DNA of 64,000 nucleotides from Candidatus Dojkabacteria bacterium. GTDB taxonomy: Bacteria; Patescibacteriota; Dojkabacteria; B142; JAFGMG01. The stretch is taken from assembly GCA_016927655.1 (NCBI GenBank), contig JAFGMG010000008.1, forward strand, positions 5,929-69,928. The letters are read 5' to 3'. Below the pieces are notes generated by a model. The model searched no databases. It had not been told where the DNA came from and saw only the letters and a program-made list of their open reading frames with translations. The position numbers and the translations under genes were made by a program. This document shows, piece by piece, positions 57,256 through 64,000 of this stretch. Numbering within the stretch: the stretch's first letter is position 1; every line of letters begins with the position of its first letter.

Positions 57256-60200
57256 TTGCAATTCTTGCATATGAAAAAACAACAGAAGATATACTTAATT
57301 AGTAGCACTGCTCTATCGCTTGTTGCAGCTTTTGTCTTAGCAGCATTTTTCAGTAGAGGAAATAGCAAACCCGAAGCCTGGACAGCAACAGACAACCCAT
57401 TTTATCAAGGCGATGTTGGAGATTATTACGATGATGGGGAACTCTATCATCCAAATGATATCGCAGTTGATGGTTCCGGTGACTACTATGTTTCAAACTA
57501 CTATAATTACAGAATAGAAAAATTCGACTCTTCAGGAAATTTTATTACTAATTGGGGCGGACAAGGCTCAGGAGATGGTCAATTTCAAGATACCCGCTCT
57601 ATCGTAATCGATGGAGCTGACAATATATATGTATCAGATCCCACATTAGAAAGAATCCAGAAATTCGATTCTGATGGAAATTTCTTATTAAAATGGGGTT
57701 CTGCGGGCTCTGGCAATGGGCAATTCAATAACCCAAATGGGGCCTATGGCTCAGGAATGACTTTAGCAGTAGATGGATCGAATAATATATATGTAGCAGA
57801 CAGGGGTAATAATAGAATTCAAAAATTTAACAGCTCAGGAACTCATTTACAGAACTTCACAAATGCTGTATTGACAACTCCAAATGGAGTCGGAGTGGAT
57901 TTAAATACCGGGAATGTCATTGCAGCAGAATATAGCCAGATGAACATTTTTGACTCATCTGGAACCCTGCTTGACGACTGGAATCAACCAGGGGAAAGTC
58001 TTGATATAGCTATTGACAGCTCAGGAGATATTTTATCTATCGCCAATAGTCCAGCATATATTTACAAATATGATCAAGCAGGTAATTTGCTGGACACCTT
58101 TAACGACAGTACAACCCAAGGTCATACAGATGGCGATTTGAGCAATTCAAGAGGGATGGGACTGGATGGCAGCGGCAATATTTTAATCGCAGATACGGGC
58201 AACAATAGATACCAGGTTTTTAACACCTCAGGAACCTATATTAAAAAAGGCGGGAGCGAGGTCTTAAACGGATATAATTTTTACTATCCATACGATATCG
58301 CTTTCGATCAAAGCGGCAACTACTATGTTTTAGATACTGGCAGCTATCGGGTTCAAAAGTATAATTCCAGCGGAGTTTATCAACTCACAGTTGGAAGGAC
58401 AGACGGAGAGGATGGCACTGGAGACGGAGAATTTGATTACGCAGAGGGGCTGGGAGTTGATTCTTCCGGGAATCTATACGTAGCAGATTCCAGCAATGAT
58501 AGAATACAAAAATTCAATTCGGCCGGGGCTTTTCAATTAAAATTCGGGACAAGCGGATCCGGCAATGGTCAATTTGATTACCCTACTGATGTTGCAGTTG
58601 ATGATGACGGCTTTATATATGTAGTCGATGCCGGAAACGATAGAGTTCAAAAATTTACTTCAGCAGGTGAATACATAACTCAATGGGGAACATCTGGATC
58701 AGGAAATGGGCAGCTAGATTATCCAAGCTATATCGCAATTGAAAGTGACTTCGGTGATGTCTGGGTGACTGATTATAACAATAACCGCGTCGAGAGATTT
58801 ACAAAATATGGGATTTATATCGACCAGTTCGGAACATCCGGTACAGGGGATGGTGAATTCGACGGCCCAGCAGGAATTGCAATAGATTCGCAAAACAACC
58901 TTTTTGTGCTGGATCAAAACAACAACCGGGTTCAAAGATTTGATGAAAATGGGACTTATAAAGGACAGCTAGGAGGGACGTACGGAGCTGGAGACCAGGA
59001 GCTGGATTACCCCTATGGCCTTGGCTTTAATGAAAATACCGGGGAACTTTTTATTCCTGATACATTTAATAACAGAATACAGAAATATCAGTTTGATATA
59101 ATCCCGCCAGACATTTACGTATCTGCAATCAGCGTCAATCCAAGCTCAGGAAATACAAGATATATTCGAGGATTGGCAGAAGACTCACTGACAAATATTA
59201 CTTCCATACAATTCAAAATCAACGTAACAGGAACCTGGACTAATTGCACAATAAGCGACGGCTTACTTGACGAAAAATCCGAAACCTTTATCTGCAGCTA
59301 CACTAGAGAACTCGACCCCGGCTCATACAATTTCTACCTCAGAAGTACTGATTCTATGACGAATACGGGAAGCAGTTTTATCTATCCATTTACAGTAGCT
59401 GGCAGCGACGGAACTACAGACGACCAAACAGATGGAACAGCAGATGAAATAGCAGACGATCAAACAGACGAAAGAATAAATGACACTGAGGTGGTAGATG
59501 AGCCTGGCAACGTGGTCGAATTTTTAAACGATTCATTAGATCAGATAAATCTGGGTGGATTGCCGCAGAAAATTATTGATATTCACAATAAAATAGCTCC
59601 AATTACGCTTAGTGCTCTACTCGCAATTCTTGCCACTTCATCATTACTAGCCTATCCATACAGCACAATTTATTATGGTATCGAGTGGCTGGCAGATATT
59701 AAAAAGAAAAAAGCATACGGACTCGTCTTTGACAAACGAGACAAAAAACCTATACCTTTTGCAATTGTAGAGCTTTTTAAGGGTGAGCAGCTGATAAAAA
59801 GAGCTGTAACAAATAATCACGGCAAATTTCTTCTTATTGCCGATAAAGGAGAATACACTATCAAAATCAAACAAATGGCATACCAGGATTACTCCGAACA
59901 GCTCAAAATAAACAGCAACGAATACTCTATAACAGAAACTTTTGGGATATTAAAAAAAGAGGATAATTTTTCAACAAATGTTAATCTTGCCAGAAAAAGT
60001 ATTCGTAAAACAGCACCATTGCTGTTCTATGCAGGCCTTACTTGGTCAGCAATTGCACTGTTATTATCATTCACACTATTTAATATGGCAATTGTAGCCT
60101 TGTATCTTGTACAGATATTGATTCTATTATTCAACAAAGCACCAAGGAATTGGGGATTTGTATTTGATGTTGATAGCAGGATGAAATTACCCAAAATATT

Positions 60201-60429
60201 TGTCCAGGCCTACGATCCAAATACCAACCAGGCAGTAGACACGCAGATCACTGATGAATACGGAAGGTTTGGCTTTACCCTGCCCGGGAAAATCTATGAA
60301 CTATTAGTAAACTCTGAAGGATACAAACTTGCAGCAAATAATAAAACAGTTGAAAAAGCCGGCAGAAAATATATTAAATATCAGGTTGGAACAAACAAAA
60401 TTGATCGCATTGGATTAGAAAGAAAGTAA
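57256..60429 (+). CDS. large NHL-repeat (double beta-propeller) surface protein with C-terminal TM segments interleaved with carboxypeptidase-regulatory-like beta-sandwich domains
   Basis: Signal/TM N-terminus; about 11 NHL-type repeats (...NNRIQKF..., DTGNNRYQVF, DSSNDRIQKF, DAGNDRVQKF...). Then a hydrophobic helix, a CarbopepD_reg-like segment (GLVFDKRDKKPIPFAIVELF...), two more TM helices, and a second such segment (GFVFDVDSRMKLPKIFVQAYD...). Confidence 0.65.
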   Translation: MQFLHMKKQQKIYLISSTALSLVAAFVLAAFFSRGNSKPEAWTATDNPFYQGDVGDYYDDGELYHPNDIAVDGSGDYYVSNYYNYRIEKFDSSGNFITNWGGQGSGDGQFQDTRSIVIDGADNIYVSDPTLERIQKFDSDGNFLLKWGSAGSGNGQFNNPNGAYGSGMTLAVDGSNNIYVADRGNNRIQKFNSSGTHLQNFTNAVLTTPNGVGVDLNTGNVIAAEYSQMNIFDSSGTLLDDWNQPGESLDIAIDSSGDILSIANSPAYIYKYDQAGNLLDTFNDSTTQGHTDGDLSNSRGMGLDGSGNILIADTGNNRYQVFNTSGTYIKKGGSEVLNGYNFYYPYDIAFDQSGNYYVLDTGSYRVQKYNSSGVYQLTVGRTDGEDGTGDGEFDYAEGLGVDSSGNLYVADSSNDRIQKFNSAGAFQLKFGTSGSGNGQFDYPTDVAVDDDGFIYVVDAGNDRVQKFTSAGEYITQWGTSGSGNGQLDYPSYIAIESDFGDVWVTDYNNNRVERFTKYGIYIDQFGTSGTGDGEFDGPAGIAIDSQNNLFVLDQNNNRVQRFDENGTYKGQLGGTYGAGDQELDYPYGLGFNENTGELFIPDTFNNRIQKYQFDIIPPDIYVSAISVNPSSGNTRYIRGLAEDSLTNITSIQFKINVTGTWTNCTISDGLLDEKSETFICSYTRELDPGSYNFYLRSTDSMTNTGSSFIYPFTVAGSDGTTDDQTDGTADEIADDQTDERINDTEVVDEPGNVVEFLNDSLDQINLGGLPQKIIDIHNKIAPITLSALLAILATSSLLAYPYSTIYYGIEWLADIKKKKAYGLVFDKRDKKPIPFAIVELFKGEQLIKRAVTNNHGKFLLIADKGEYTIKIKQMAYQDYSEQLKINSNEYSITETFGILKKEDNFSTNVNLARKSIRKTAPLLFYAGLTWSAIALLLSFTLFNMAIVALYLVQILILLFNKAPRNWGFVFDVDSRMKLPKIFVQAYDPNTNQAVDTQITDEYGRFGFTLPGKIYELLVNSEGYKLAANNKTVEKAGRKYIKYQVGTNKIDRIGLERK

Positions 60430-61692: not shown

Positions 61693-63045
61693 CTACATTG
61701 ACTCGTGTAATGTCGCTAAAAATTCCTGATTGTCTTTTGTTTTCTTCAGCCTGTCAATAAGCATTTGAGTTGCCTCATCCCCTTTAAATGAATCAAGCAT
61801 TCTTCTCACTCTCCAGGTTTGTGCTAAAACATCCGGATCAAGCAGCTGATCATCATTTCTGGTTCCGGAATTTTGGACATCAATTGCCGGGAAAATTCTT
61901 TTATTAGCAAGTTTCCGATCAAGTTTCAGCTCCATATTTCCAGTACCTTTGAATTCTTCAAAAATAACTTCGTCCATCCTGCTGCCGGTTTCGACCAAAG
62001 CAGTTGCAATAATAGTCAAACTGCCGCCCTCTTCGAAGTTTCTAGCTGCCCCGAAAAATCTCTTTGGAGGATAAATTGCAACTGGATCAAATCCACCAGA
62101 TAAAGTCCTTCCAGATGGCGGAGCTACAATATTGTAAGCCCTTGCGAGTCTAGTAATTGAATCCATCAAAATCACAACATCTCTATCCTGTTCGACAATT
62201 CTTTTCGCCCTATCAAGCGCTAATTCGGCTACTCTTGTATGATCCTCCGGTGGTTCATCGAAATTCGATGCGACCACTTCACCATCAACAGATCTTTTCA
62301 TATCGGTGACCTCTTCAGGCCGCTCTCCAACAAGCAAGACAATCAAATGTATATCTGGATGATTTTTTTTAATTCCATCGGCAATATCTTTTAGCAGCCA
62401 TGTCTTTCCAACTTTTGGAGGTGAAACAAGCATACCTCGTTGTCCTTTGCCAATTGGAGCAAGCATATCAATAATTCTAGTTGATAGATTTGCCCTATCA
62501 GTCGCAGTAGTTATCTGCTCATTTGGGAAAATCGGTGTAAGCGAGCCGAAGCTCGGCCTCGAAAGCGCCTCATCCGGACTTGTCCCATTAATTGCTTCTA
62601 TTCGAAGCAGAGATAAATATCTTTCGCCTTCTTTCGGAGGACGCGCCTGCCCCGAAACAAAATCTCCCTGTCGTAAATTAAACCTTTTAATCTGCGAACC
62701 AGAGACATAAACGTCATTTTCGCCGGGAAGCATCTTTAGAGACCTCAAAACTCCATGTGCTCCATCATTGATTACCTCCAAAACTCCTTCAGCAAAGATA
62801 TTTCCTCCTCTTTTTGTCTGCTCTCTTAGTATTTCAATAATCAGATCTTCTTTACTCAAATCAGCTACCCCCTTCAGTTCAAGGGTCTCAGCCATTTTTC
62901 TAAGATCTGCCACAGTTTTTGTGTTCAGCTCTCTTAGACTCATAGCATCAGCTATTTTGTCTTTTGTTTTTGTTGAATATGTAATTATCGGCTTCACAGT
63001 TTTTCTTACAACCTTTGTACTGGTTTTACTTTCCTTCGCACTCAT
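61693..63045 (-). CDS. rho: transcription termination factor Rho
   Basis: Rho N-terminal/CSD-like region, RecA-type ATPase with Walker A (PPKVGKT). Confidence 0.9.
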
Positions 63046-63129
63046 ATACGCATTGATAAAAATTTAAATAAATCATGAAATTATGCATTTCTGTTGGGAT
63101 AAAACATTTTTGAGGAATATTTCAAATTG

Positions 63130-63158
63130 AGTATAGAATGAAGTTTAGGCAAAGTCAA
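63130..63158 (-). promoter_or_regulatory. candidate promoter for rho (TTGACT-17-TATACT)
   Basis: Hexamers read on the minus strand; would give a ~77-nt 5'UTR. Confidence 0.35.
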
Positions 63159-63167
63159 CCCCAATAG

Positions 63168-63375
63168 TAAAAAAAGTTGGGATCGGCACTGCCCCGACCG
63201 ATCCCACCGGAGAACATTTTCATACGTGCTCTGGTGGAAACGCTGGGACTAGTCTCAAGGTGCATCCAGTTCCGAGAGTCCAGTAAGTCCTCCAAAAATA
63301 GTTTTACCTAAATTCAGAGGTGTACGCGAACCAGACTCTGGGAACTGCAAACACCTTGGTTGTAAAAGTTCTGTA
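63168..63375 (-). ncRNA. candidate ~205-nt structured small RNA with its own promoter and intrinsic terminator (identity unknown; 6S-like end-pairing)
   Basis: Minus strand: TTGACA-18-TAGAAT promoter (plus 63379-63408), no ORF, 5' AGAACUUUUACA pairs with 3' UGAAAAUGUUCU, then terminator GGGAUCGG-N11-CCGAUCCC + U7 (plus 63168-63205). Confidence 0.3.
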
Positions 63376-63499
63376 GTCATTCTATCCTATAGTATCCATA
63401 TATGTCAAGCCTATAGTTTAGCGTTTCATGAGCAGACCCTGCCACACAGCGGCTCGCAAGCACGGCCATATCTAGATATTTGGAAATGCGCGCTGGGCG

Positions 63500-64000
63500 C
63501 TACAAACCAAGTGCCAGCGCTTTGATGCTTTTTGAGGTTTTCAATACTTTCAAACCTAGGTTTTCCAATTCTTTTCTTCTCTGCTCTTCTCTGAGAGTTT
63601 TTCCAACTATTCCAGTAAGACTTAGTTCCCCCAGCGCTGCGACATTCGCACTTAGCGCTTTATCCTTTAGTGAGCTGGCAATAGCGATAGCTACAGCCAA
63701 ATCAATTCCGGGGTCATTCACACGCAAACCGCCGGCAATATTTACATAAACATCTTTATCATAAAGTTTCAATCTGGCGTGTTTCTGGAGCACTGCACAA
63801 ATAACTTGAAGTTTAGAACTCGAGATACCCTGCGCCACTCTTTTTGGCTGCGAAAAAGAGGTAACATTAGTCAAAGCCTGAACTTCGATAACTATAGAGC
63901 GGTTTCCCTCAATAATTGCGCTTCTGCAAACACCCGGAGATTTCTCGCCGGATACAAAAAAGAGTGGCGCATCCCCCAGATCTTCAAGCCCACTCTCCCC
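63500..64000 (-). CDS. radA: DNA repair protein RadA/Sms, C-terminal (Lon-like) part; N-terminus beyond window end
   Basis: ...SFSQPKRVAQGI...VYVNIAGGLRVNDPGIDLAVAIAIASS...GELSLTGIVG; the reading frame continues open to position 64000. Confidence 0.75.
   Translation of the reverse strand, partial: GESGLEDLGDAPLFFVSGEKSPGVCRSAIIEGNRSIVIEVQALTNVTSFSQPKRVAQGISSSKLQVICAVLQKHARLKLYDKDVYVNIAGGLRVNDPGIDLAVAIAIASSLKDKALSANVAALGELSLTGIVGKTLREEQRRKELENLGLKVLKTSKSIKALALGL

Follow-up and report, generated by a model that had tools for sequence, protein, structure and literature searches.

The DNA between radA and rho in a Candidatus Dojkabacteria genome raises the question of what it encodes and whether the product serves rho, the next gene downstream, or acts on its own. 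The window analyzed here is the whole 64,000-nucleotide (nt) stretch of contig JAFGMG010000008.1 (positions 5,929 to 69,928), and the region in question is read from its minus strand. An initial annotation had proposed a noncoding unit of ~205 nt running from a promoter to a terminator. Comparison with 17 other distinct Candidatus Dojkabacteria loci bore this out: the unit spans ~204 nt and has a conserved promoter, a covarying structure, and a conserved terminator, as is expected of an independent small-RNA gene. Judged from these comparisons of sequence, the stretch is a single-copy gene for a structured noncoding RNA of ~200 nt with its own promoter and intrinsic terminator. The RNA represents a previously undescribed family of a familiar general kind, with no relative in Rfam and no counterpart in our literature searches. 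Its elements, from the promoter to the 3' end, are the following.

~63372 to ~63169, minus: transcript of the RNA gene, ~204 nt from promoter to terminator, between radA and rho.
63410..63417, minus: upstream promoter element ACTATAGG, one base 5' of the −35 hexamer.
63379..63408, minus: σ70-type promoter TTGACA-18-TAGAAT, 11 of 12 consensus matches.
63408-63403 and 63384-63379, minus: −35 hexamer TTGACA and −10 hexamer TAGAAT.
63393-63386, minus: second copy of ACTATAGG, in the spacer and abutting the −10 hexamer.
63360..63371, minus: BoxA-like 5' end GAACUUUUACAA, with the likely start near A63372; 9 of 12 positions match GCUCUUUAACAA.
63256..63358, minus: hairpin 1 (HP1), the long hairpin with the family-defining core, made of P1, P2, an asymmetric loop, and P3.
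63339-63331 with 63283-63275, minus: P2, 5' strand AGAGUCUGG paired with CUGGACUCU, containing the tandem U.G/G.U pairs.
63340, minus: invariant C of HP1, opposite a base other than G.
63330 with 63284, minus: U-A pair closing the HP1 loop.
63329-63321 and 63288-63285, minus: asymmetric loop of HP1, 5' side UCGCGUACA and 3' side ACUU.
63320-63289, minus: P3, the variable apical hairpin.
63233..63252, minus: segment X (CUAGUCCCAGCGUUUCCACC), predicted to pair with the 5' strand and loop of HP3.
63209..63232, minus: hairpin 2 (HP2), the variable middle hairpin, at the apex of the X:X' rod; it holds UGAAAAUGUUCU (63222-63211).
63169..63205, minus: hairpin 3 (HP3), the terminator, found by a terminator scan: GGGAUCGGU-CGGGGCAGU-GCCGAUCCC (63205-63179), then AAC, then U7 (63175-63169).

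The structural evidence centers on HP1, whose invariant core in the family reads UCCCAGAGUCUGG-UUCGCGUACA ... ACUGGRCUCUNGG. In an alignment of 12 sequences made with MAFFT, 94.3% of cells pair, and double, compensatory changes occur in 16 of the 28 pairs, with all six pairs of P3 and 8 to 10 of those of P1 covarying. The covariation score was 0.55 compared to 0.20 in shuffles, none of which (0/500) reached 0.55, and sliding the partner strand by 1 to 3 columns lowered pairing to 32 to 47%. A second alignment, of 18 sequences fitted to a covariance model, agrees with this result (over both alignments, slid strands paired at 31 to 47%), so that the comparison with orthologous regions that the initial annotation had named as a check speaks for the structure. 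Moreover, the whole transcript has a minimum free energy (MFE) of −84.3 kcal/mol (z = −6.6), and none of 200 shuffles folded as well. The invariant G.U pairs, together with model scores of 79.6 bits on the minus strand versus 22.7 bits on the plus strand of the window, settle the strand.

Within HP1, conservation is unevenly spread. The outer stem P1 varies in sequence among relatives, while the 10-bp helix that leads to the loop includes P2, an invariant helix with the consensus AGAGUCUGG paired with CUGGRCUCU, whose tandem U.G/G.U is present in 18 of 18 sequences. The invariant C faces C, U, or A in the family alignment and never G. In the loop, the 9-nt 5' strand (UCGCGUACA) is nearly invariant and the 3' strand is variable, at 3 to 5 nt. 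P3 has 6 to 10 bp and loops of any sequence. In loci fetched by protein sequence (see below), the 5' strand of HP1 stays fixed and changes in the 3' strand preserve pairing, for example A to G giving U.G; there, the junction CUUA is replaced by UAAA, ACAA, or UCAA. One locus, L226, does without P3, so the internal loop becomes a terminal loop of 15 nt, and its positions 2627-2699 amount to a natural minimal HP1 composed of P1, P2, and the loop UUCGCGUACAACUUA.

The HP1 loop also contains a self-complementary tetramer, GUAC (63325-63322 in the window). Self-complementarity is kept where the sequence changes, to GUAU in L225 (2550-2553) and AUAU in L227 (2594-2597); in L093, the palindrome extends to CGUACG, and the CGCG directly before GUAC is likewise palindromic. 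Loop positions three apart cannot pair within one loop; therefore, the pairing, if real, would be between two loops. Kissing between the loops of two molecules, or of tandem HP1 copies, is a lead and not a result.

The shared motif can be written as CCCAGAGUCUG-GUUCGCGUACA-(variable hairpin)-ACUUACUGGAC-UCUNGG. When metagenome contigs were scanned for exact matches to the 21 core bases, which yields a set selected by the core itself, 12 loci were returned, 10 of them genuine, with flanking conservation; the other two (L084 and L087) were discarded as GC-rich chance matches whose flanks are not conserved. For an unbiased set, Dojkabacteria rho loci were fetched by the Rho protein alone and searched with a covariance model built from the first set. 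The RNA was found in 9 of the 10 distinct lineages so obtained, 250 to 500 nt upstream of rho and at 60 to 83 bits. In the tenth (L102/L103), it was not found upstream of rho, which there has other neighboring genes and a Rho call of 640 amino acids (aa). The same model detected the motif in none of 79 rho loci of other phyla, a Saccharibacteria locus included. It gave no match in viral contigs (best E value, 0.065, in GC-rich DNA), and a phage origin was rejected, since a 15-mer scan of viral contigs returned about the chance count, although a 15-mer is too short for a good query. As far as these searches reach, the RNA is specific to Candidatus Dojkabacteria (WS6, Candidate Phyla Radiation [CPR]).

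HP1 occurs once or twice per RNA. Twelve loci have the long form, which ends in HP3; six loci (L001/L088, L082, L083, L086, L091, and L092) have short or tandem forms without it, and several of the six show a U-rich tract continuing from the base of HP1. L001, a Dojkabacteria metagenome-assembled genome, carries two tandem motif copies upstream of rho where the window has one; tandem HP1 copies without HP3 lie at L001 2148-2328, in L088, and at L083 1298-1480. In tandem loci, the 3' strand of copy 1 is by construction complementary to the 5' strand of copy 2, making an alternative pairing like that of a trp attenuator possible.

The promoter proposed in the initial annotation, TTGACA-18-TAGAAT, fits the consensus as described, and its architecture recurs in the relatives as CTATAGG-N1-2-TTGACA-N10-11-TATAGG-N-TAnAAT, with the −35 hexamer also occurring as TTGACN. 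CTAT[AG][AG]G sits 1 to 2 nt before TTGAC in nine tabulated loci and is visible in the remaining ones. Two (AC)TATAGG copies ~24 bp apart, with a variable spacer between them, are conserved across lineages (the window, L085, L089, L090, L093, L095, L097, L099, and L104); the pair may be bound by a transcription factor or serve as an extended promoter element. We rejected a general promoter type, since the ACTATAGG architecture has no further copy in the 64-kb window, tRNA genes included, apart from a weak variant at the rho promoter. Promoter-like sites number 7 in positions 62000-64000, compared to 3.5 expected.

A protein-coding role does not fit the region. The initial annotation had found no open reading frame (ORF) there, which is not literally so, as small ORFs of 41, 46, and 44 aa overlap the RNA; the one of 41 aa begins within the −10 box, ahead of the likely transcription start. 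However, the P3 insert varies from 0 to 38 nt among relatives, so no reading frame can be conserved, and small-protein coding was rejected. A dispersed repeat was also rejected, because the HP1 core and HP3 are each single copy within the window, where no second match to the covariance model was found. The region had further been described as more GC rich than its surroundings; with a GC content of 0.42 to 0.50, this holds against the rho leader (0.27 to 0.29) but not against the radA coding sequence (0.41 to 0.48).

Downstream of HP1, the long-form RNAs carry what is predicted to be a bistable domain. The strong intrinsic terminator with U7 noted in the initial annotation is present at 63205-63169 and corresponds to the conserved HP3. 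A 24-mer of HP3 unites 11 related loci and occurs once in the window; the stem is invariant apart from wobble changes (G.U to A-U and U.G to U-A), and the 9-nt loop reads NGGGGCAGU, or UCGGGCAGU in two lineages. A hairpin at the position of HP2 is present in all long-form relatives, with no conservation of sequence. Nonetheless, MFE folds of the full RNA mostly lack HP3; instead, segment X, which lies just after HP1, pairs with the HP3 5' strand and loop. In the window, the X pairing is part of the MFE structure, forcing HP3 costs 6.3 kcal/mol, and the probability of HP3, P(HP3), is 0.001 in the native sequence compared to 0.87 when the middle region is shuffled. As a control for such masking, only the interval between HP1 and HP3 was shuffled, with dinucleotide content preserved. 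The mean pair probability of the HP3 stem was ≤0.03 in 9 of 12 native RNAs compared to 0.85 to 0.99 in shuffles, and native P(HP3) fell within the lowest 0 to 2% of shuffles in 11 of the 12. Where RNAs were folded both ways, the alternative was favored by 2.6 to 13.4 kcal/mol in seven of nine. X differs in sequence by lineage, and its complementarity to the invariant HP3 is retained.

X is thus a predicted anti-terminator strand, and the two folds exclude each other as a terminator and an anti-terminator would, as an equilibrium thermodynamic prediction. As far as such prediction goes, termination at HP3 would not be the default outcome, or the released RNA would refold. The 3' strand of HP1, tested against the middle region, gave duplex energies no better than those of shuffles in 9 to 10 of 12 RNAs (z near 0; significant in only 2 to 3 of 12). 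With no consistent complementarity of this strand, HP1 is not coupled to the switch by simple strand exchange, and we rejected that form of coupling to the terminator. In L225 and L227, the P3 3' strand (GUUCGGUCGGGU) closely resembles the HP3 5' strand plus loop (GGGGUCGGUUCGGGC), and in the window, L090, and L093, P3 3' strands are loosely like the stretch immediately 5' of HP3; the 3' domain could thus be a degenerate copy of HP1. A second degenerate HP1 copy in the 3' domain of the window was rejected, as the model gave only 6.7 bits there, from the terminator stem alone.

The 5' end of the RNA resembles BoxA. At the transcript start, 8 of 17 loci match GCUCUUUAACAA at 9 or more of 12 positions, a level reached by 1.5% of random 30-nt windows of the same loci; the loci are related and the motif is AT rich. 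Nearly all such matches fall 6 to 8 nt past the −10 box, the best cases being GAUCUUUAAUAA (L090) and GUUCUUUAAAAA (L104). The element is absent or weak in three lineages (L097, L225, and L092). In several lineages (L097, L089, and L092), a small 5' hairpin takes the place of the BoxA-like start. Across the whole window, a degenerate BoxA-like pattern is not enriched (10 matches compared to 6.6 expected). Because the loci are related, the motif is AT rich, and three lineages lack the element, the label is kept to "BoxA-like," and binding of NusB/NusE is only putative.

How, then, would such an RNA act? Because it has its own promoter and terminator and the next gene has a conserved promoter of its own, we favor, tentatively, a stand-alone RNA that acts in trans by binding a protein or a second RNA and whose 3' end can switch. 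In this scheme, HP1 would be the docking site for a macromolecular partner, either a protein or another RNA loop that pairs through the self-complementary GUAC. Docking is suggested because one strand of HP1 is conserved beyond the needs of pairing, because neither the tandem G.U pairs nor the unpaired C varies, and because the apical stem is dispensable and the hairpin comes in one or two copies per RNA. The main role of the RNA would be in trans, either within a stand-alone ribonucleoprotein or as a regulatory RNA. In the long form, the 3' domain would be bistable, since the 5' half of the terminator hairpin has an alternative partner in the upstream segment; either 3'-end formation would be conditional, or the released RNA would refold to a second rod whose 3' tail is single stranded.

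Several points weigh against this stand-alone role. The start site, the 3' end, and the abundance of the RNA are all predicted values; a partner protein is putative; and no known RNA three-dimensional motif (K-turn, loop E, or T-loop) fits the HP1 loop. By inspection, these motifs, as well as S15/S8-type rRNA mimicry, were dropped as lacking the defining nucleotides or the pairing register. Only two variant lineages stand behind the covariation of the loop palindrome. An anti-terminator that has evolved sits uneasily with a plain small-RNA gene and suggests regulated read-through, and a BoxA-like 5' end makes more sense for a long untranslated transcript. Finally, wherever downstream sequence is available, the RNA is co-oriented with and directly upstream of rho, L085 excepted.

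The masked terminator and the BoxA-like start therefore keep a role as a conditional-termination leader for rho as a close second, a reading that we regard as quite possible but doubtful. Transcription from the strong upstream promoter would begin with the BoxA-like element, HP1 would serve as a sensor that binds a factor or a ligand, and the choice between X:X' and HP3 would decide between stopping and reading through into rho, with the terminated RNA a by-product or serving a second role. Variants of this idea take the RNA as an antitermination site like λ nut (BoxA plus hairpin) or as a riboswitch. That upstream sequence specifically masks the terminator in 9 of 12 homologues, unlike in shuffles, speaks for it, as do the enrichment of the BoxA-like sequence at +1, the poor U-tracts of some lineages (L097 and L089), and the tandem HP1 copies, which could pair in the 1:2/2:3/3:4 manner of a trp attenuator. 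So does the adjacency to rho in nearly all loci, including L093, in which a gene inserted on the opposite strand lies between radA and the RNA and the latter remains next to rho. The downstream features of the window are as follows.

63130..63158, minus: promoter of rho, TTGACT-17-TATACT, outside the RNA and marking the boundary of the unit.
61693..63045, minus: rho coding sequence, the downstream neighbor, with the Pfam domains Rho_N, Rho_RNA_bind, and ATP-synt_ab.

This separate rho promoter, already recognized in the initial annotation, speaks against a leader role. All 10 long-form loci with rho downstream have a near-consensus TTGACN-17/18-TATA[CA]T in the interval from the RNA to rho; the gene is thus not reached only through the element, and any such leader control would be bypassed. 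In nearly all lineages, this promoter has a spacer of 17 bp and its −10 hexamer reads TATACT, an unusually strict keeping of a non-consensus base. Moreover, no consistent complementarity links the HP1 3' strand to the switch region, and HP3 is invariant in sequence, which is unusual among riboswitch terminators. Nor is the association obligatory: L102 has rho with other neighbors and no RNA upstream, and L085 has the RNA in the order clpC-radA-RNA, followed by a small NikA/ribbon-helix-helix-like ORF, with no rho nearby. (The L085 ORF, at 2475-2888 on the minus strand of that locus and co-oriented, encodes 137 aa whose N terminus is weakly NikA/ribbon-helix-helix-like, with E = 0.001, below the Pfam cutoff.) The block clpC-radA-rho-LysM/M23 is syntenic across these genomes; therefore, adjacency of the RNA to rho alone says little about function, and conserved gene order alone can account for it.

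Known systems offer partial likenesses to such a leader. BoxA shields rRNA, CRISPR arrays, and similar untranslated transcripts from Rho, and at suhB it can also promote Rho termination (PMC5725501, PMC7665894). Like λ nut and the rRNA or CRISPR leaders, our RNA would be an untranslated transcript with a BoxA-like start, a close conserved hairpin (compare BoxB), and a terminator downstream; unlike them, it has the element at +1, HP1 is ~100 nt and unrelated to BoxB, and Nus binding remains putative. As in riboswitch or attenuator platforms, the terminator 5' half can pair with an upstream segment, far from the behavior of shuffled sequences, but here the terminator is sequence invariant, hairpin and switch share no strand, and a promoter precedes the downstream gene. 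A conserved RNA structure upstream of rho within one lineage has been described as the Pseudomon-Rho motif (Weinberg et al. 2010, PMC2864571). Its Rfam model had no match in the window region or in eight homologous loci, and our RNA differs in lacking sequence or model similarity to it, in having its own promoter and terminator, and in being restricted to Dojkabacteria.

Less probable, in our estimate, is a rho-linked control element in which a BoxA-initiated transcript, HP1, and the masked invariant terminator set read-through into rho, or else an HP1 dimer or multimer kissing through GUAC. A stand-alone role and a leader role for rho could also coexist.

We consider it improbable that HP1 is the aptamer of a metabolite-binding riboswitch, single or in tandem. 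The highly conserved junction between covarying stems, the tandem arrangements (compare glycine riboswitches), and the terminator/anti-terminator pair downstream would suit an aptamer. However, no gene other than rho is associated with the RNA, and rho is served by a promoter of its own; moreover, the apical stem is dispensable, the aptamer stem is uncoupled from the expression platform, and no Rfam riboswitch family matches.

Rfam 15 was searched at the gathering score over the whole window, at E ≤ 10 in 63050-63520, and at E ≤ 5 in eight homologous loci. At the gathering score, it found tRNAs elsewhere in the window only and no family on the RNA region, as the cmsearch check named in the initial annotation was to establish; the permissive matches on the region (mir-1298, RAGATH-13, snoR101, and beta_tmRNA) were generic hairpins far below thresholds. 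ARAGORN likewise gave no match on the region. The earlier remark that signatures of signal recognition particle (SRP) RNA, transfer-messenger RNA (tmRNA), and RNase P are missing is upheld by both programs. SRP RNA is excluded because Rfam found no match and neither the size nor the sequence of the HP1 apical loops is constant, leaving no conserved GNRA-capped domain IV; tmRNA and RNase P RNA are excluded by the lack of an Rfam match in the window or the eight homologous loci and of an ARAGORN tmRNA. Our literature searches (small RNAs of Dojkabacteria or the CPR, 6S RNA, and rho-leader motifs) returned nothing relevant beyond the Pseudomon-Rho and BoxA papers.

A divergent 6S RNA, a rod-shaped mimic of the open promoter that sequesters σ70 RNA polymerase holoenzyme, is more improbable still. 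The likeness to 6S RNA (RF00013 and relatives) lies in the single copy, the size of roughly 200 nt, the strong σ70-type promoter, the conservation across the lineage, and the rod-like HP1 (in L085, a rod of ~150 nt). 6S RNAs are hard to find by sequence. To our knowledge, none has been described for this phylum, and a literature search found none. Nonetheless, no 6S model gave a match, whether at E ≤ 10 in positions 63050-63520 of the window or at E ≤ 5 among the eight homologous loci. Instead of the large, two-sided central bubble of 6S RNA, HP1 has a small, lopsided loop of 9 nt versus 3 to 5 nt. Its distal helix, of 0 to 10 bp and absent in L226, is too short to mimic an upstream promoter duplex; the core is duplicated in some species, and the RNA has a separate conserved 3' hairpin domain. 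The initial annotation had been reminded of 6S RNA by complementary ends. The two segments exist, AGAACUUUUACA at 63372-63361 and UGAAAAUGUUCU at 63222-63211, and 10 of their 12 bases can pair; but the second is set back ~40 nt from the 3' end, and neither the MFE fold nor the consensus fold of nine homologues contains the pairing. Relatives differ in that their 5' end pairs immediately after HP1, so end pairing is not conserved and the 6S likeness does not hold.

That a chance hairpin stands beside fortuitous promoter- and terminator-like sequences, which occur at background rates in AT-rich DNA, and has no function is refuted by the comparative data and next to impossible, as all elements are conserved jointly, with compensatory changes, across loci whose Rho proteins are 70 to 85% identical.

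Promoter, structure, and terminator have all been conserved while the neighboring Rho diverged to about 70% identity, and such strict keeping makes it very likely that the RNA does something important. CPR bacteria have tiny genomes, and our literature searches found no described lineage-specific noncoding RNA among them, nor any regulatory RNA reported from this phylum. Structured RNA motifs without an assigned function are found in large numbers, and the finding is solid rather than extraordinary. As a target it is concrete, since its coordinates are exact, a covariance model is at hand, and the sites to mutate are defined, namely, the tandem G.U pairs, the unpaired C, the GUAC loop, and segment X. 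The position and the masked terminator make a link between the element and Rho supply directly testable. If the RNA does control rho, the supply of the termination factor would be tied to the state of the elongation/Nus machinery or to Rho stripping the anti-terminator.

Some minor observations concern Y RNA and the neighboring genes. Y RNA, with its Ro60-binding helix, shares with HP1 a conserved helix with an unpaired C and strand-specific conservation, and the 5' strands look superficially alike (GUCUGGUUCG versus GGCUGGUCCGA), which we take to be coincidence; the likeness was dropped because the pairing register differs, no Rfam Y_RNA match was obtained, and no rsr gene was seen nearby. 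The upstream flank of the RNA is the C-terminal end of a RadA-like protein with a ChlI/Lon_C-type domain (Pfam). Rho of the window is 100% identical to a Candidatus Dojkabacteria Rho protein at NCBI. Many Dojkabacteria Rho calls have 490 to 640 aa (e.g., P0005, P0006, P0010, and P0100) compared to 416 to 450 aa for the rest; the long calls may be start-codon overextensions into the AT-rich leader or real N-terminal insertions, and the 640-aa call (L102) comes from the sole locus without the RNA. A LysM/M23 peptidase gene follows rho, and just past it lies an ORF of 1,057 aa (57256-60429, plus strand) with NHL-type repeats (SGNGQF.../NNRIQKF...) and a C-terminal membrane region.

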